Source: an uncultured Pseudomonadota bacterium (lineage in GTDB: Bacteria; Pseudomonadota; Gammaproteobacteria; Burkholderiales; SG8-39). From it: 64,000 nt of DNA. Below the pieces are notes generated by a model. The model searched no databases. It saw only the letters and a program-made list of their open reading frames with translations, and had not been told where the DNA came from. Numbering within the stretch: the first letter of the stretch is position 1; every line of letters starts with the position of its first letter. The stretch spans positions 576,192 through 640,191 of the forward strand of contig CAVTZJ010000002.1 in NCBI GenBank assembly GCA_963739205.1, given 5' to 3'. The position numbers and the translations under genes were made by a program. Positions 23,937 through 54,313 of this stretch are shown here, piece by piece.

Positions 23937-24764
23937 TCACCTGCGCTTCTTCGTTTTCGATCTTCGCGGCAAGGGCGCCGGGTTCGGTATCTCCTCCGCG
24001 ACGACGAAGGCGCCGCCCTGGTACAGCTCCGCGGTCGGATCGCCCGGCTTCTCGCGCGCGAGCACTTCCTTGGCGAAAGCTTCCGAGTCGTCGCGCGGCT
24101 CGTAGCCGAGCCGGAAGGCGTTCGAGTTGTCGTACCAGCCGCGCGTGTTGTTCGACACGCCGTACACGATCTCGAAGCGGATGTCGGGATGCTCGATGCC
24201 GATCGTCACGAGCTGCGCGAGGTCGCGCGGCGAGAGCCAGATCGACAGGCGCCGCCTGTCGATCGGCGCCGGATTGACGTTGCCGATGCGGATGCACAGC
24301 ACCTGCATGTCGTACTTGTCCGCGTACAGGCTCGCGAGCGCCTCGCCGAACACCTTCGACACGCCGTAGCGGCTGTCGGGCTTCGGATAGACGCGGTGGT
24401 CGATCAGGTGCTCGCGGCGGTAGAAGCCGGCCGCGTGGTTGGACGAAGGAAACACGATGCGCTTGACGCCATTCCTGCGCGCCGCTTCGAACACGTTGTA
24501 GCAGCCGACGATGTTCGCCGACAGGATCTCCGGCCACGGACCCTCGACCGAGTAGCCGCCGAGGTGCACCACGGCGTCGACGCCCTTCGTGATGCGCAGC
24601 GCGTCGGCGAGCTTCGAGACGTCGGCGCGCACGAAGCGCTCCGCCTTGTCGAATTTCTTCAGCGGACGGAGGTCGGACACCCTGAGCGCGTACCGCCCGG
24701 CGAGCTCGCGCCGAAGATGGGTGCCGACGTCTCCCGCGGCACCGGTGATGAGCACGGTCTTCAT
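23937..24764 (-). CDS. NAD-dependent epimerase/dehydratase (uronate dehydrogenase-like SDR)
   Basis: ITGAAGDVGTHL Rossmann motif, SSNHAAGFY, YGVSK catalytic pair. Confidence 0.85.
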   Translation of the reverse strand: MKTVLITGAAGDVGTHLRRELAGRYALRVSDLRPLKKFDKAERFVRADVSKLADALRITKGVDAVVHLGGYSVEGPWPEILSANIVGCYNVFEAARRNGVKRIVFPSSNHAAGFYRREHLIDHRVYPKPDSRYGVSKVFGEALASLYADKYDMQVLCIRIGNVNPAPIDRRRLSIWLSPRDLAQLVTIGIEHPDIRFEIVYGVSNNTRGWYDNSNAFRLGYEPRDDSEAFAKEVLAREKPGDPTAELYQGGAFVVAEEIPNPAPLPRRSKTKKRR

Positions 24765-30795: not shown

Positions 30796-30823
30796 CAAAA
30801 AAGCTGGCCGCGGCCAGCTTTTA
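30796..30823 (-). terminator. Rho-independent terminator
   Basis: AGCTGGCCGCGGCCAGCT hairpin followed on the minus strand by TTTTTT. Lies between the nitroreductase pair and ybiT. Confidence 0.6.
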
Positions 30824-41081: not shown

Positions 41082-42161
41082 TTATCTCTTCTTGGCAGCA
41101 CCACGCTTAGGACCGTGGGACGCCCAGACCTCTTCTTTAGGGTGTCTTTTCATAGCCTCTTCTATGACCGGGATTGCCTTTTGAGAATAGCGGTCGAACA
41201 GCGCCTTTCCGATGGAGATCCGCTTAAAACACTCACGGTCGTCCTGTAGTTTCAAAAACCGAATATAAGAAGTCGTCCCGGGTCCACTGAGCCCAACTTT
41301 TTGAGCGAGTTGGTCTCGACCGAGATTGTAGAAGCCAAGTTCGTCAACACGCTTCACGGCAACGACAGCTGCTCCTGGCGTACCCTCCGGGACGAGTTGC
41401 ACAGGTGTGCCCGTCTTTGTTATCCGCAGTTCGATCGACGGGCCGTAACCTTTAGTCGTGAGTGTGACAGTCGCGACTCCTGGGAAAATCTCATTCCACG
41501 CTTTCTTATCCGCAGCGATATCCGCGGCAAGCTTTTTTAACTCTCCTACTCCCGGCTGCACCTTCTCCCCACTCAGCGATTTCTCAATGATCGCAAGCGA
41601 CCGAAGCTTTGCCTCTGCTTCTGTATGCCGACGAGCACCCGGTGCCAACAGTTTCCTAATCTCTTTCGTCTCGTTGTCGAATAGTTTCGCCAGATCTGTT
41701 GGAGGGCTTGTGGAAAGTGGCAGAACGCGAACCGGAAGATGGGTTTGCAAGTCTTCGCCAAATACCGACTTGAAGACATCCCGAAACAGGCTTAGGCCCG
41801 CCTGGGACTGAATGTACAAGTGCTGTTCAGACATATCGAGAAGGTGATGTTGTGCAGCGTCTCTCAGACTGTTGATCATCTGAACTGTAAGCGCCTGGTT
41901 ATCCGTCAGGAACTTCACACTCGCGTCAGAAAGCCCTTTCCGAACAGACGCATCGAAACCAATAGTCTGTTTGGCTCGGGGCTCACGGATTCGTCCTCCT
42001 CGATGCAGGATCGCCGCCTTGAAGAGCATTTCAAATGCATGGTCAAGCGAAATGAGAACACTGTGTGTGCGCCCGGTATCGGAGGGGCGGTTGAAAAGCT
42101 CAACGCTCAGCATCAACGACTCAATCGCTTTCGTTCTTAGGAGCTTGACCTCCTTCTTCAC
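41082..42161 (-). CDS. Uncharacterised protein embedded in the R-M operon (DUF3644-like N-terminus, possible wHTH C-terminus)
   Basis: GTG overlaps the hsdS stop (GTGA) and the ORF ends 18 nt before hsdR. AIESLMLSVELFNRP...LISLDHAFEMLFKAAIL. Lowest-GC part of the window. Confidence 0.7.
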   Translation of the reverse strand: MKKEVKLLRTKAIESLMLSVELFNRPSDTGRTHSVLISLDHAFEMLFKAAILHRGGRIREPRAKQTIGFDASVRKGLSDASVKFLTDNQALTVQMINSLRDAAQHHLLDMSEQHLYIQSQAGLSLFRDVFKSVFGEDLQTHLPVRVLPLSTSPPTDLAKLFDNETKEIRKLLAPGARRHTEAEAKLRSLAIIEKSLSGEKVQPGVGELKKLAADIAADKKAWNEIFPGVATVTLTTKGYGPSIELRITKTGTPVQLVPEGTPGAAVVAVKRVDELGFYNLGRDQLAQKVGLSGPGTTSYIRFLKLQDDRECFKRISIGKALFDRYSQKAIPVIEEAMKRHPKEEVWASHGPKRGAAKKR

Positions 42162-43363
42162 GAATTGAGTTCCCGAAGTATCGCCCGTCCCGCTAGCATC
42201 CTCGGCAGCAGCAGGTCACGCGTCCGTCGGAGGTTTTGGATCTGAAAAATAAGGGTCTGTTGCTGCTCGATGGTCTCGGCGAACAGCGCAGAGAATTGCT
42301 CAACGACTTTGCCTTTCGGGATCACGACTTTGTATTTCTCCAACACGTCCCAGTTCGCGCGCGGCATCTTCGCTCCATTCGCGGTTGCGCTCGCTTCCGC
42401 AACGAATGCGTCGCTGGAGACGCACGCCACGACAAAGGCGTAATGCTCGGGGCGACGAGAACGTACGACGATGGTGTCGGCGGAGCATAGGCCGTCGAAC
42501 GGCGCGACGCTGACCTTGTGGAAATAAGGCCGAATCTTGCCGAACAGGACTTCACCTTTCTTGAACTCAAGTTTATTCGAGCCGAGGTTGGTCGCTGTTT
42601 CCCAAGCGTTAAGTGCGAGCGAGCGACGTGGGATGTGCTCGAGGCCGACGTATGGTTTTGGCTCGTCGAGGTCTCCCTTCGACACATTGCGGCGCGTGTT
42701 CTCAGCGATGTCGCCAAGCGTTTTCACTTCCCAGCCTTTGGGGATGTCGCCTAGGGGAGAGGCGACGCGCGGGAGCTTTTCGTGGCCGGGGAAGCGGAAA
42801 TGGACGAACCACTCGTGGTAAAGGGCGCGGGCCATTTCCTCCAAGATCCGAATGCGCCGCTGGTTGTTTTCGATCAACTCGTCATAGGCCGACAGTATTG
42901 CTGCAATGCGTTGCTGAACACCCCGAGGCGGCAGATCGGGAAGCGCTAGTTCCCGCACATCCTTCATGTTCAGGTGGGGCACCGTTACGCCATTTGTCTT
43001 GGCGTGGATGACTCGTTGCACCTGAGGACCATTCAGGAGGTAGTTCAGAAAGGACGGTTCAACCTTTGACCGATTAGGGCGAATCAGAAGGGTCCGCTGC
43101 CCAAGGCAGACCTTCAGCCCCTCAGGAACAATTGCCGCGTTGCCAACTGGCGCCTCGCGCGCCATGATGATGTCGCCCGGTCGAGGAACCGCGCGCTTTG
43201 TCCAGAGGCGGTAGGTGTCCTCCGATACTCGATTCACGCCGTCGAGGATGAAGAAGCCCCTTCCAATGTTCGGCGTACGGATCGATGGATAGCCTTCTGC
43301 CTGTGTTGGCGCAGTCTTATGCTCGCAGTCCACTATCATTTCGCTGATATCGGCGAGCCTCAT
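42158..43363 (-). CDS. hsdS: Type I restriction enzyme specificity subunit
   Basis: Two target-recognition domains separated by the conserved helix QQRIAAILSAYDELIENNQRRIRILEEMARALYHEWF. Distal repeat LIFQIQNLRRTRDLLLPRMLAG. Intact. Confidence 0.9.
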   Translation of the reverse strand: MRLADISEMIVDCEHKTAPTQAEGYPSIRTPNIGRGFFILDGVNRVSEDTYRLWTKRAVPRPGDIIMAREAPVGNAAIVPEGLKVCLGQRTLLIRPNRSKVEPSFLNYLLNGPQVQRVIHAKTNGVTVPHLNMKDVRELALPDLPPRGVQQRIAAILSAYDELIENNQRRIRILEEMARALYHEWFVHFRFPGHEKLPRVASPLGDIPKGWEVKTLGDIAENTRRNVSKGDLDEPKPYVGLEHIPRRSLALNAWETATNLGSNKLEFKKGEVLFGKIRPYFHKVSVAPFDGLCSADTIVVRSRRPEHYAFVVACVSSDAFVAEASATANGAKMPRANWDVLEKYKVVIPKGKVVEQFSALFAETIEQQQTLIFQIQNLRRTRDLLLPRMLAGRAILRELNS

Positions 43364-43366
43364 ACC

Positions 43367-44992
43367 CTACGCTTCGAGAATCTCTGCCACGTTGCCGGCA
43401 ATAGTCTCTTCGAGTTCGCGCGCTCGCGCGTTGAGCGCTTCGAGTTCCTCATTCAGCGTTTCGAGCTGTTCCTTGAAGTCTTCGTCGCTGACATCTTCGC
43501 CAGGCGCAACGCCGACGTAGCGGCCGGGGTTGAGCGACCACCCTTGGGCTTCGATCTTCTTTGAGTGTGGCGGCCTTGCACAGGCCAGCAACGTCGGCGT
43601 ATTTCGGTTTCTTGCCGAAGATTTCGACGAGCTTTGCGTTCGCTTCGTCGCCGCCGAGGGTGAAGTCGGGCTCTTCGCCGCGGTAGAGGCGCACGAGGTT
43701 GGCGAGGAAGCCGACCTGCGCTTCGGTCCAGTCGCGGTGGGCGCGGTCGATCTGGCGGTAGATGTGGCGGGCGTCGATGAAGAGGACTCGTGTCGGCGCG
43801 CGGGGTTTTCTTCTTGCCGCGGTCGAGGAACCACAGGGTGCAGGGCAGCGTGACGGTGTAGAACATGTTCGGGCCGACGGCGACGATCACGTCCACGGCG
43901 CGGGACTGGATGAGCTGCTTGCGGATTTCCAGTTCGGAGGCGCGGGCGTCGCTGGCGGAGTTGGCCATGACGAAGCCGGCGCGGCCTTTGTCGTTGAGCG
44001 AGGAGTAGAAGAGCTGGATCCAGAGGTAGTTGGCGTTGTCGGTGCGCGGCAGGCCGAAGGGGAAGCGGCGGCCCGGGCCGACGGCGTCCTTGAGGCGGTC
44101 CTTGTCCACGGCGTTGACGTTGAACGGCGGATTGGCGAGGACGAAGTCGAAGGCGCCGACGGCCTTGTGCGGGTCGTCGTAGTAGCTGTTGACCTCGCCG
44201 CCGTGGCGGATGTCGCCCTCCAGGCCGTGCACGGCGAGGTTCATGCGGCACAGGCGCCCGGTTTCGTCGGTCTTTTCGACGCCGAAGATGGAGAGCTCGG
44301 ACGCGGGGTTTTTCTTGTGCTCGGCGACGAAGCGCGCGGACTGGACGAACATGCCGCCTGAGCCGCAGGCGGGGTCGAGGATGCGGCCGTGGAAGGGTTC
44401 GAGGATCTCGACCATGCAGGCGCACGATGGGCGCCGGGGTGTAGAACTCGCCGCCCTTCTGCCCCTCGGTGCGGGCGAACTGGCCGAGGAAGTATTCGTA
44501 GATGCGCCCGAAGGCGTCGAAGTCGAGGCTGACGGGGATCTCGGAGACTTTCTTCAGCAGTTCCTTGAGCAGGGTGCCGTTGAAGATCTGGTAGTTGCGC
44601 GGCAGCACGCCCGCGAGCTGCGGGTTGTGCTTCTCGATGTCGGCCATCGCCTCGTTGACGGCCTTGCCGACGTTGCTGCCTTCGGGCCGCGCGAGCAGGT
44701 AGTCGAAGCGGGAGTTCGGCGTGAGGAAGAGGACGCCTTCGGCCTGGTAGGCCTTGGGGTCGTCGATGCGCGAGGTGCCGCGGCGCGCCGAGGTGCCCGC
44801 CTTCTCCAGTTGCGCGCGGCGCTGCGCGAAGCGCGCCTCGGCGAAGCGCAGGAAGATCAGGCCGAGGACCGGCCCGGAGTATTCGCCGGCCTTGAGGCCG
44901 GAGTTGGCGCGGAACTGGTCCGCCGCGGCCCAAAGGCGCTTCTCCAGCTGGTGGTTGGCTTCGTCTTTCTCGGTCGGCGCGACCCAGCGCAT
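43367..44992 (-). pseudogene. hsdM: Type I restriction enzyme methylase subunit with three 1-nt insertions
   Basis: HsdM_N and GGEFYTP are in frame [11 protein letters not shown] and NPPFN are in frame [11 protein letters not shown]... is in frame C. The tail [15 protein letters not shown] is back in frame A. Junctions lie near 44416, 43788 and 43556. Confidence 0.9.
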
Positions 44993-45028: not shown

Positions 45029-45440
45029 GCGCAGCGGCGGTCAACCCGGGGCGCGCGGTCGGCGTTGTGTCGTCAGGAATGGGGACGAAAAGGACAATCG
45101 GACAAGCAATCGAGCCGCGCATCCTGATGCTGCGCGGCCAGCGGGTCATGCTGGATTCCGATCTCGCCAGGCTCTACGAAGTCGAGGTGAAGGCGCTGAA
45201 CCAGGCGGTAAGGCGCAACCCGGCACGCTTCCCTGCCGACTTCATGTTCCGGCTGACCAGGGAGGAGGCCGAACGTTCAAGGTCACAAACTGTGACCTTG
45301 AAAGGCGCGGGCGGGAGGGGACGCAACATCAAGTACCTGCCCTACGCGTTTACCGAGCAGGGTGTCGCGATGCTCTCCTCGGTGCTGAAAAGCGAACGGG
45401 CGGTCCAGGTGAACGCGGAGATCATGCGCGCCTTCGTGCG
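45029..45440 (+). repeat. Copy A of a 412-bp direct repeat (ORF6N gene plus leader)
   Basis: Colinear with 53645-54056. Shared leader GCGCAGCGGCGGTCAACCC...CGGCGTTGTGTC and a colinear 121-codon reading frame. Confidence 0.7.
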
Positions 45441-45492
45441 CCCGAGCGAGCGGCGCGTCAGCGCAGCGCCCGGTAGAGAAACGGCAAGCTGA
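45079..45492 (+). CDS. ORF6N (KilA-N-like) domain protein, C-terminally truncated copy
   Basis: [35 protein letters not shown]...[24 protein letters not shown]. Homology to the paralog stops after ...MRAFVR. The tail is antisense to the esterase 3' end. Confidence 0.7.
45276..45302. repeat. Perfect 12-bp-arm inverted repeat inside ORF6N copy A
   Basis: TTCAAGGTCACA-AAC-TGTGACCTTGAA, 197 nt after the ATG. Confidence 0.8.
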
Positions 45493-46551
45493 CATCCATC
45501 CGGTAGTCGATGTCGGAGTGGTCGTCGTCGAATTCTTCGTAGCGGTGGCGGATGCCGGCCGCGGCGAGGCGCTGCGACAGCAGGCGCGTGCCGTAATGGA
45601 TGTGGTACTGGTCGCGCCAGCCGCAGTCGATGTAGATGCCGCGCAGCGACTTGAGGTTGGCGCGGTAGCGCGCGACGAGGTTGATCGGGTCGTGGCGGCG
45701 CCAGTTGCGCCAGCGCTCCTCGATCGCTTCGCCCGTTTCCGCGTTGAACGGGATGCGAAAGCCGTTCGGCGCGCGCGGATCGGGGTCGTAGGTGGCGGCC
45801 ATGCAGAGGTTCATGATGCAGTGGACTTCGCCGCCCGAGAGCTTCTCCTTCTTCCACACGTGCGCGAGGAAGCGCCTGATGCGGCCGTCGTCCAGACCCG
45901 GCTTCGAGTTTTCTGTTTGCCGGGAATTTCTGTGGGCCGGCTTTTCGCTTCGGCGCGCGGTACTTGGCGATCTCGTTCAGCGTGTTCGGCCAGTCGTGCC
46001 AGTAGACGAAGTCGAAGTACGCGTCGCCCGAGTGGTCGGCGATCGCGCCCCAGTACTGCGGCGTACTTCATGCCGTGGATGATCGCGCCGTAGCCGCCGG
46101 ATGACTTGCCGAAGCAGCCGCGGTGCTCCCGGCCCGCGAGGGTGCGGAATTCGCCGTCGACGAAGGGGATGATCTCGCGCGTGAGGTAGTCGGCGTAGTC
46201 GCCGATCGCGGAGGAGTTGACGTACTGGTTGCCGCCGAGCGCGGTGAAGCAGTCCGGGAAGACGATGATCGCGGGCCCCATCTTCTGCTCGTGCATGAGT
46301 CGCGCGGCGCGCTCGGGGACGTTGTCGCCGAAGGGCTTCCAGTTGGCGTGCGCGAGCCCCGAGCCGGTGAAGCCGACGAGGTCGTAGAGCACCGGGTAGC
46401 GCTGCGAGCGGCGCGCGTCGTACTGCGGCGGCAGCCACACGCCGAGCTTTCGCACGTGCGGGTCGCCGAGCGGGTTGCCCTTGAGAATTCTCGATTCGTG
46501 CTCGAGCACGACCAGCGTGCCCGGCGAACCCTTGGCGCGCTTCAGTGCCAT
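45458..46551 (-). pseudogene. Esterase (PF00756-type alpha/beta hydrolase), two frameshifts
   Basis: N-terminal frame runs to ...GKSSGGYGAIIHGMKY. YWGAIADHSGDAYFDFVYWHDWPNTLNEIAKY is in a second frame. GLDDGRIRRFLAHVWKKEKLSGG...DCGWRDQYHIHYG is in a third. Junctions lie near 46057 and 45895. Confidence 0.8.
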
Positions 46552-53469: not shown

Positions 53470-53644
53470 CGCCGCGCCTCCCTGCTGTCAAAATCGGTAA
53501 GGGCAGCATACGTAACCGCCGCCCAAAATGCGGCGAAAAAATCCGCACTTCGTCCTAGCAGCGGATGCGCAGCGGGATGAGCACGGCCTGCCCGAAATCT
53601 TCGCAGCTCGAGACGTCTCTGCCGTCGGGGTAGCCCGACGGCCC

Positions 53645-54056
53645 GCGCAGCGGCGGTCAACCCGAGGGAACCGACCGGCGTTGTGTCTTCACGTATGGTC
53701 GCGAAGCGAACGATCGGACAGGCGGTGGATGCGCGCATCGTCGTCCTGCGCGGTCATCGCGTCATGCTGGATTCGGATCTGGCTGAGCTCTACGGCGTCG
53801 AAGTCAGGGCACTCAACCAGGCCGTCAAGCGCAACCCGGGCCGCTTCCCGCCTGACTTCATGTTTTCGCTTACGCAACAAGAAGTTGCGCTTTTGAGATC
53901 ACAAAATGTGATCTCAAACGCCCCCTTGCCGGCTCGCGGAGGTCGGCGCACCTTGCCCTTCGCATTCACGGAGCAGGGCGTCGCCATGCTCTCCTCGGTC
54001 CTGAAAAGCGAACGCGCGGTCCAGGCGAACGTAGAGATCATGCGCGCCTTCGTACG
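53645..54056 (+). repeat. Copy B of the 412-bp direct repeat (ORF6N gene plus leader)
   Basis: Colinear with 45029-45440. Confidence 0.7.
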
Positions 54057-54222
54057 TCTGCGAAGCATGGCCACACAGAACCTCGTGCTGGCTCGGCGGC
54101 TCGACGAACTGGAGTCCAGGTACGACCGTCAGTTCAAAGTCGTGTTCGACGCGATCCGCGAGTTGATGACCCCACCGGCACCGACACCTAAGCGCCGCAT
54201 CGGCTTCATTGCCGGCGAATAG
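53695..54222 (+). CDS. ORF6N (KilA-N-like) domain protein, full length
   Basis: [35 protein letters not shown]...[24 protein letters not shown] plus a C-terminal coiled-coil [26 protein letters not shown]. Confidence 0.8.
53892..53918. repeat. Perfect 12-bp-arm inverted repeat inside ORF6N copy B
   Basis: TTTGAGATCACA-AAA-TGTGATCTCAAA, 197 nt after the ATG, the same offset as in copy A. Confidence 0.8.
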
Positions 54223-54313
54223 CCTGCTCTACGAAGTTTGATGCATCATTCGTTTTCCCCCCGGACCCCGCTCGCCTCACGGCGGGCGTGCCCGACCGAG
54301 ACGAGGAAACGCC

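Follow-up and report, generated by a model that had tools for sequence, protein, structure and literature searches.

The ORF6N genes and their surroundings

Two paralogous genes of the ORF6N family lie on the plus strand of the stretch analysed here (the window, 64,000 nucleotides long, with a G+C content of 68%), and each carries a perfect palindrome within its coding sequence. The first, copy A, diverges from the hsdM gene of a type I restriction-modification system, while the second, copy B, belongs to a compact module delimited by comparison with an empty site (locus L302). The features to which the text refers are as follows.

42158-43363, minus strand: hsdS (Pfam Methylase_S), type I restriction-modification, context only and not part of the element
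43367-44992, minus strand: hsdM (Pfam HsdM_N and N6_Mtase), divergent from copy A
45039-45066, plus strand: motif GGTCAAC-N17-CGTTG, 15-40 nt 5′ of the ATG of copy A
45079-45492, plus strand: ORF6N copy A, 137 aa (Pfam PF10543, E = 6e-33, 113.4 bits)
45276-45302, no strand assigned: palindrome A, TTCAAGGTCACA-AAC-TGTGACCTTGAA, within copy A, encoding (R)SRSQTVTLK
53550-54236, plus strand: ORF6N module, with about 145 nt of upstream sequence, the coding sequence and 14 nt past the stop, as compared with the empty site
53655-53682, plus strand: motif GGTCAAC-N17-CGTTG, about 15-40 nt 5′ of the ATG of copy B
53695-54222, plus strand: ORF6N copy B, 175 aa, full length (Pfam PF10543, 114.2 bits, E about 1e-33)
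53892-53918, no strand assigned: palindrome B, TTTGAGATCACA-AAA-TGTGATCTCAAA, within copy B, encoding (L)LRSQNVISN

Both proteins exceed the gathering threshold of PF10543 (27.8 bits), and ORF6N is the sole domain recognised in them, with no nuclease, HUH or recombinase domain. The AlphaFold model of copy B (mean pLDDT 71) comprises an N-terminal alpha/beta domain and a long C-terminal helix (residues 106-158), and the residues encoded by the palindrome (66-75) run from the end of a helix into the first part of a loop (71-84) where pLDDT is below 50. A search for relatives of solved structure found none by sequence and none significant with Foldseek (best E = 0.2), so that DNA binding rests on the view of the ORF6N/KilA-N class held in the literature. 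The weak Foldseek matches include MerR-family proteins.

When copy A is aligned with copy B and with other homologs, its homology is lost past IMRAFVR, the remainder being either truncated or replaced (45440-45492), and the C-terminal coiled coil is missing. The break does not fall at the palindrome, which is still perfect despite the early end of the gene. On the 3′ side of copy A lie minus-strand ORFs, among them a putative esterase (45811-46551) and an ORF (45342-45857) that overlaps the 3′ end of copy A.

Upstream of the two genes, the motif AAC-N17-CGT is kept not only in both window copies but also in the betaproteobacterial ORF6N loci L001, L002, L164 and L165. We take it to resemble a promoter of the ECF-sigma type, and it may be read as the promoter of copies A and B. 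A G+C-rich hairpin, GCCGTCGGG-GTAG-CCCGACGGC, is also found upstream of copy B, inside the module (53621-53642), and the same hairpin occurs in L161.

The hsdM/ORF6N arrangement seen at copy A recurs in L001, and in Treponema the homolog stands between hsdM and hsdS. Nevertheless, no conserved partner gene was found near ORF6N genes, whose neighbours are diverse, mostly housekeeping genes and some type I restriction-modification genes. Copy B matches three PADLOC models of PDC-S05 (E = 9e-53, 2.5e-49 and 3e-36), and its PHROG match is an anti-repressor family. By the PDC-S05 match, copy B is a candidate defence gene. A preprint reports a 10- to 1000-fold drop in plating for the phages T7, T5 and T4 with one PDC-S05 representative; the protein tested there carries a RhuM domain, and the preprint is silent on the palindrome (10.1101/2024.09.26.614923).

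Two palindromes at homologous codons

Each palindrome consists of perfect 12-bp arms around a 3-nt centre and starts 197 nt past its ATG (45079 in copy A, 53695 in copy B), and that of copy B can be extended to 53889-53921, with 15-nt arms and one mismatch. An earlier note on this DNA had given these coordinates, sequences and the 197-nt offset, and on re-reading the window sequence all of them proved exact for both copies. It had also observed that the arms of A and B differ at three positions, each difference being mirrored in the opposite arm, and that the encoded peptides differ; both observations stand. Its further remark, that the codons used in the palindromes are atypically A/T-ending for a GC-rich genome, agrees with the codon usage of the window, in which TCA makes up 6% of Ser codons, TTG 4% of Leu codons, CAA 27% of Gln codons, and AGA and AGG 2% and 4% of Arg codons.

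Such structures are rare by chance. The window contains four perfect palindromes whose arms reach 12 bp or more around a loop no longer than 5 nt, as against 0.075 in Markov-simulated windows, and two of the four sit at homologous codons of the two ORF6N paralogs. The other two, GATCGACAGGCG-C-CGCCTGTCGATC at 24240-24264 and AAAAGCTGGCCG/CGGCCAGCTTTT at 30799-30822, bear no sequence relation to the ORF6N element.

Conservation throughout the family

Homologs were collected by peptide patterns lying outside the palindrome, a procedure that is blind to the palindrome itself, and the set comprises 80 loci from genomes of many phyla (54-69% amino acid identity) together with 80 loci from viral contigs. 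A stem of 10-16 Watson-Crick pairs (mode 13) is present at the same codon in 110 of the 112 distinct DFMF..FTEQG segments, and palindrome A occupies the codon position homologous to this family-wide palindrome. When 84 genes, thinned to less than 85% identity, are placed in a protein-guided alignment, 76 of them have the best odd palindrome of the whole gene at one and the same aligned codon, with the first base of that codon as its centre. Furthermore, an internal palindrome, at residues 53-70, is found in all ten distant plasmid-borne homologs considered (32-50% amino acid identity), which come from Legionella, Segatella, Butyrivibrio, Treponema, Haliovirga and Sulfuricurvum.

The conserved core reads GGTC-R-CAA-W-TTG-Y-GACC, and co-varying flanks bring the arms to 11-16 bp. 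Every ORF6N-type copy found, coding or non-coding, is odd-centred on one base, a result to be read with the fact that the scans for extra copies partly demanded an odd centre.

In several genes the palindrome motif is tandemly duplicated (L004, L038, L045, L056/L062 and L060, for instance as LRCQIGTSK...LKYQIETSK), giving two adjacent palindromes per coding sequence.

Selection acts on the nucleotides

A palindrome could follow trivially from a conserved SQxVT peptide written in common codons. This explanation is ruled out by three lines of evidence: codon resampling, codon entropy and variants read in a shifted frame. When synonymous codons are resampled according to the usage of each locus, the mean longest arm is 4.7 bp, compared with the 10.0 bp observed, and for 58% of the genes the observed arm is reached in none of 300 resamplings. 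Synonymous-codon entropy is about maximal all along the gene and collapses only at the roughly ten codons of N-L-R-S-Q-I-V-T-S-S, where one codon dominates at position after position (TTG 65/78, TCA 54/66, CAA 70/74, ATT 30/31, GTG 53/54, TCA 65/66 and AGT 33/39).

The frame itself is not fixed, since in two subfamilies the palindrome lies in another reading frame. In L113 and L148 the core ATCACA..TGTGAT is one base out of phase and is read as E-L-I-T-x-C-D-K, and in the Legionella and Segatella genes the palindrome is translated as E-L-V-E-N-F-D-R-F. Within the usual frame, complementarity forces residues to change in pairs: S with V (TCA/GTG), S with A (TCG/GCG), C with G (TGC/GGC), Y with G (TAC/GGT), F with G (TTC/GGA) and F with E (TTT/GAA).

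The same constraint appears as covariation. In an alignment of 99 sequences, 13 of the 15 pairs show changes on both sides and 85% of the cells are paired, against 24-43% when the partners are slid; none of 500 shuffles matches any of the observed covariation measures.

The earlier note had proposed that the dyad or hairpin itself is selected, overriding protein and codon constraints, and had named two comparisons that bear on this proposal. One was a broad alignment of homologs, in which the idea could have failed through absence of the palindrome; its presence in 110 of 112 segments lends the proposal strong support. The other was a covariation analysis, and the 13 double-sided pairs stand above all shuffles and slid controls. 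Together with the suppressed synonymous variation and the changes of peptide and phase, the covariation supports the proposal as it was made. The palindrome is a nucleic-acid element kept by compensatory change, and it is firmly a part of the ORF6N gene family. On the evidence of these sequences, it can be described as a functional signal hidden in coding sequence and kept even at the cost of the protein.

Copies outside the coding sequence

In about one lineage in five (approximately 20% of loci) a further copy lies 15-130 nt 5′ of the start codon or across it. Examples are L010, L018-L023, L027, L031, L033, L041, L043, L059, L061, L064, L066, the L084 group, L113 and L290; no such upstream palindromes arise in shuffled loci. 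In L290 and L031 the copy stands 14-17 nt ahead of the ATG, in L018 and L023 it overlaps the start, and in loci that have both kinds of copy the upstream one is 215-310 bp from the internal one. Upstream copies sometimes come as tandem pairs with a spacing of 37-54 nt. Among the 112 distinct sequences, an internal copy is missing only from L059 and L064, each of which has an upstream copy. Copies A and B of the window, like most loci, have the internal palindrome only.

Copies are also found at the other end of the gene. In Legionella plasmids, one directly follows the stop codon of a 298-aa ORF6N gene (L169:4912-4936 and L299:2001-2028).

Twenty-five non-coding copies, drawn from several phyla and from unbiased sources, give the consensus TTTGAGGTCACAAATTGTGACCTCAAG, of the form TTTGAGGTCACAA-W-TTGTGACCTCAA, in which core positions are 88-100% conserved and 90% of the pairs are Watson-Crick. 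A scan of metagenome contigs with the exact pattern returned 129 matches. At least 95 of these fall within the coding sequence of an ORF6N gene and at least 15 a short way upstream of one, so that about 90% lie in or beside ORF6N genes and about 12 (some 9%) are orphans.

A perfect orphan copy, TTTGAGGTCACAAATTGTGACCTCAAA, is present on a Sulfurospirillum plasmid between a Sir2 gene and dinB, with no ORF6N gene nearby (L298:2501-2528). A match in unannotated intergenic sequence of IncY, P1-like E. coli plasmids, TTTAAGGTCACAAATTGTGGCCTTGAT (L297:1501-1527, about 77 E. coli records), was not accepted as a true copy, being weak (E = 7) and possibly due to chance.

DNA or RNA?

The mismatches of the stem bear on the level at which it acts. 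Of the 858 core pairs of the thinned set, 824 are Watson-Crick, and the remainder comprises 7 G·T, 13 A·C and 14 mismatches of other kinds, while the non-coding copies hold 10 G·T against 10 A·C; in neither case is there a significant wobble-pair bias from which a strand could be assigned. A functional RNA stem should tolerate G·U far better than A·C, and a symmetric spectrum, in which G·T is no commoner than A·C, argues for DNA over RNA and is compatible with a constraint that acts on the duplex, or on the two strands alike.

This evidence weighs against an mRNA hairpin, formed inside the coding sequence and at some loci also in the 5′ UTR, across the ribosome-binding site or start codon, or immediately past the stop, that would control the translation, the processing by a host RNase or the mRNA stability of a potentially toxic defence gene, an explanation that we regard as unlikely. 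Several observations would suit it. As single strands, palindromes A and B are predicted to fold at -13 to -16 kcal/mol as DNA and at -18 to -23 kcal/mol as RNA, a stable stem with a folding z of -4.7 to -6.4 for the palindrome segments (about -5 to -6); extra copies occur where leader or 3′-end hairpins act (L290, L031, L018, L023, L169 and L299); a universal host RNase would explain the absence of a partner gene; and the outer arms co-vary without a fixed sequence. However, unlike in typical structured RNAs, G·U is not favoured (7 vs 13 A·C vs 14 other in the core, 10 vs 10 in the non-coding copies), and a plain stem needs neither the conserved core nor the constant odd spacing of the non-coding copies.

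Two more specific RNA identities were rejected. An intrinsic terminator is excluded because the element has no U-tract (3′ of the stem comes AGGCGC or CGCCCC at the two window copies and, for most homologs, AGTTGGGG) and because the stems are A/T-rich at the centre. As for a structured RNA element, covariation is present, but G·U is not favoured and Rfam yields no match to the palindrome at E values up to 1. Among the roles that the earlier note had left open, namely an operator, a recombination site or an RNA stem, the data lean towards a DNA-level dyad bound by protein.

Non-adaptive maintenance can also be envisaged: in a quasi-palindrome that already exists, template switching within a strand at replication would transfer a change from one arm to the other, and the arms would evolve in concert with no function under selection. 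Template switching at quasi-palindromes is an established mechanism, and it would yield one-step compensatory changes, strict pairing, equal numbers of G·T and A·C, and residue changes dictated by the DNA. Nevertheless, we consider it highly improbable as the explanation here, given that it leaves unexplained the retention of the palindrome at the same codon across many phyla, the conserved core of the non-coding copies, the position of copies at the 5′ and 3′ ends of genes, and the presence of an upstream copy in both of the genes that lack the internal one.

Signs of mobility in the ORF6N module

ORF6N genes are solitary and occur in unrelated contexts of many phyla at 54-69% identity, with two copies in this window and three each in L060 and L072. 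At L302, on a closely related contig, the genes that flank the module in the window (a 185-aa ORF and a DUF1993 gene, the latter 93% identical) stand 153 nt apart with no ORF6N gene between them, the module of about 690 nt replacing about 22-29 nt of that locus (690-735). This empty site indicates that the module at 53550-54236 is a recent gain or loss. Comparison of the module with the empty site revealed no convincing terminal repeats or target duplication at its ends, and these do not fall at the palindrome.

Small replicons carry the gene as well. In two Segatella copri plasmids (L166, 2955 bp, and L167, 4140 bp) the only annotated genes are a replication initiator and ORF6N, and each of these ORF6N genes has its own internal palindrome. 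A tyrosine integrase adjoins ORF6N in three Legionella plasmid loci, and in L094 the tail of the upstream ORF looks, by reading, like a tyrosine integrase. The order integrase - ORF6N - YfjI in L299, along with a YfjI gene about 2 kb downstream in L169, is reminiscent of a small integrative island.

A hairpin or cruciform in the DNA might in turn be the recombination, transfer or replication site by which the single-gene ORF6N module would be moved, copied or rearranged, with REP/RAYT, the ends of IS200/IS605, integron attC sites and origins within rep genes as analogues. Strict Watson-Crick pairing on both strands around an A/T-rich centre would be expected of it, and the solitary gene in unrelated contexts, the several copies per genome, the presence or absence relative to the empty site, the orphan copies, the tandem arrays at 37-54 nt, the tandem duplication of the motif in some genes and the integrases beside the Legionella loci and in L094 all point in the same direction. 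We nonetheless hold this account to be quite unlikely: the module lacks terminal repeats and target duplications and ends away from the palindrome, there is one hairpin per module and it lies mid-module, nothing in the protein can be recognised as a nuclease, HUH or recombinase domain, truncations such as that of copy A do not break at the palindrome, and orphans make up only about 9% of the exact copies.

Comparison with known systems

The closest parallels, which are analogies and imply no membership, come from sites that lie within genes. The parS site is reportedly found inside the spo0J (parB) gene of Bacillus subtilis. It measures 16 bp and also occurs at several other places in the chromosome, and ParB works with ParA and CTP. 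As in that case, the ORF6N palindrome lies within the coding sequence of its own, here putative, DNA-binding protein, so that gene and site are inherited together; unlike parS, it extends over 27-35 bp, has no ParA-like partner and is linked to the gene in about 90% of its copies.

Intragenic operators such as lacO2 in lacZ and the PurR operator in purB serve regulators that are encoded elsewhere. They share with the ORF6N site the position of a dyad hundreds of bases into a coding sequence, sometimes with a promoter-proximal site. The ORF6N site differs from them in being conserved across phyla by compensatory non-synonymous change, and most ORF6N loci are without a promoter-proximal copy.

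Plasmids of the pT181 family have an origin with the cruciform-forming IR-II inside repC, RepC being a nicking initiator whose nick site lies in the loop. Here too, an inverted repeat capable of forming a hairpin is placed in a gene whose product acts on that repeat (putatively so for ORF6N), with strict pairing at the DNA level; in contrast to RepC, ORF6N lacks a catalytic motif, and the loop has 1-3 nt.

REP elements and their RAYT genes resemble the present case in that the palindromes are short, change in a compensatory way in the stem, form tandem arrays and lie on either side of an associated gene. REPs, however, are extragenic, occur in tens to hundreds of copies in a genome and have GTAG at the 5′ end, and RAYTs are HUH-Y1 enzymes. 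Membership of this group was rejected, the main ORF6N copy being inside the coding sequence, orphans being rare and the protein having only the ORF6N domain. The integron attC site was rejected likewise: attC is an imperfect palindrome (R″-L″...L′-R′) of 57-141 bp with extrahelical bases, adjoined by cassettes and IntI, whereas the ORF6N palindrome is perfect, spans 27-35 bp, lies inside a coding sequence and has no integron context.

The outer arms of the family, CTTGAGG...CCTCAAG, match what we take to be the heptamers of the SoxR box in the soxS promoter (CCTCAAGTTAACTTGAGG), in everted order, a likeness that is probably coincidental.

A proposed site for the ORF6N protein itself

It is quite possible, and we tentatively favour this reading, that the palindrome is a dyad-symmetric cis element acting at the DNA level as the cognate binding site of the ORF6N protein itself. 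Both the binding and its effect are here inferred. With a predicted DNA-binding domain and a long dimerising helix, the protein would read the dyad as a dimer, and the gene and its site would travel together as one compact, self-contained module. By binding to the internal site, the protein would control the expression of its own horizontally mobile, defence-associated gene, an autogenous control to which the copies upstream of or overlapping the start, present in about one locus in five, would add; or else the site would serve as a nucleation point for the protein on the locus that encodes it. The site lies in a structurally permissive stretch, at the end of a helix and in the first part of a loop of low model confidence, where the peptide is free to follow the DNA.

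Several links lead to this proposal. With no partner gene conserved beside ORF6N, the simplest candidate for reading the site is the ORF6N protein. The shared core and constant spacing of the non-coding copies argue that recognition is sequence-specific and not just structural; moreover, the almost exclusive linkage of the element to ORF6N genes, along with the extra copies at their 5′ end, favours a site for the encoded protein, and the membership of that protein in a DNA-binding class, with its long C-terminal helix, supports the same reading. The element has two marks of an operator, namely two-fold symmetry with fixed half-site spacing and conserved bases in the non-coding copies.

Some observations nevertheless run counter to it. 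An internal site about 200 nt into the coding sequence, and no other, as in most loci, would be an unusual place for an operator. Complementarity that reaches 13-16 bp per arm, longer than a typical half-site, counts against it as well. The arm sequences vary between close relatives, the putative recognition helix being nearly invariant, and the upstream and internal copies of one locus can differ in their outer arms (for example in L084/L093 and L061). These varying outer arms and the long complementarity would be better explained by a constraint on a hairpin or cruciform than by base-specific read-out. Furthermore, the truncated copy A keeps a perfect palindrome without the dimerising helix, which also counts against the proposal.

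ORF6N genes might instead be minimal self-recognising modules in which the encoded protein reads the hairpin or cruciform in a structure-specific manner, and on this interaction a widespread antiphage or selfish mobile system, made of a single gene, would depend for its working. We judge this improbable. The interaction would then serve, for example, as a sensor or trigger, or as the site for copying the gene between genomes, and, if true, this would constitute a new class of element in which a peptide and a binding site are the same DNA, co-evolving by complementarity.

What the palindrome means for ORF6N genes

A full-text search of the literature on ORF6N, KilA-N, PDC-S05 and RhuM phage defence found no description of the palindrome, nor any work that pairs KilA-N with a palindrome. 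The genes themselves are very common, with at least 8000 relatives in one search, and their settings include plasmids and prophages as well as defence islands, type I restriction loci and integrative islands. A cis element conserved more strongly than its own peptide offers a concrete, testable handle on what ORF6N proteins recognise.

Beyond this family, the palindrome is a clear natural case of selection at the nucleotide level that overrides the protein sequence, and even the reading frame, across phyla. It calls for caution in analyses based on codon models and dN/dS. The same caution applies to gene synthesis and codon optimisation of defence candidates such as PDC-S05, in which recoding would destroy the element unnoticed.
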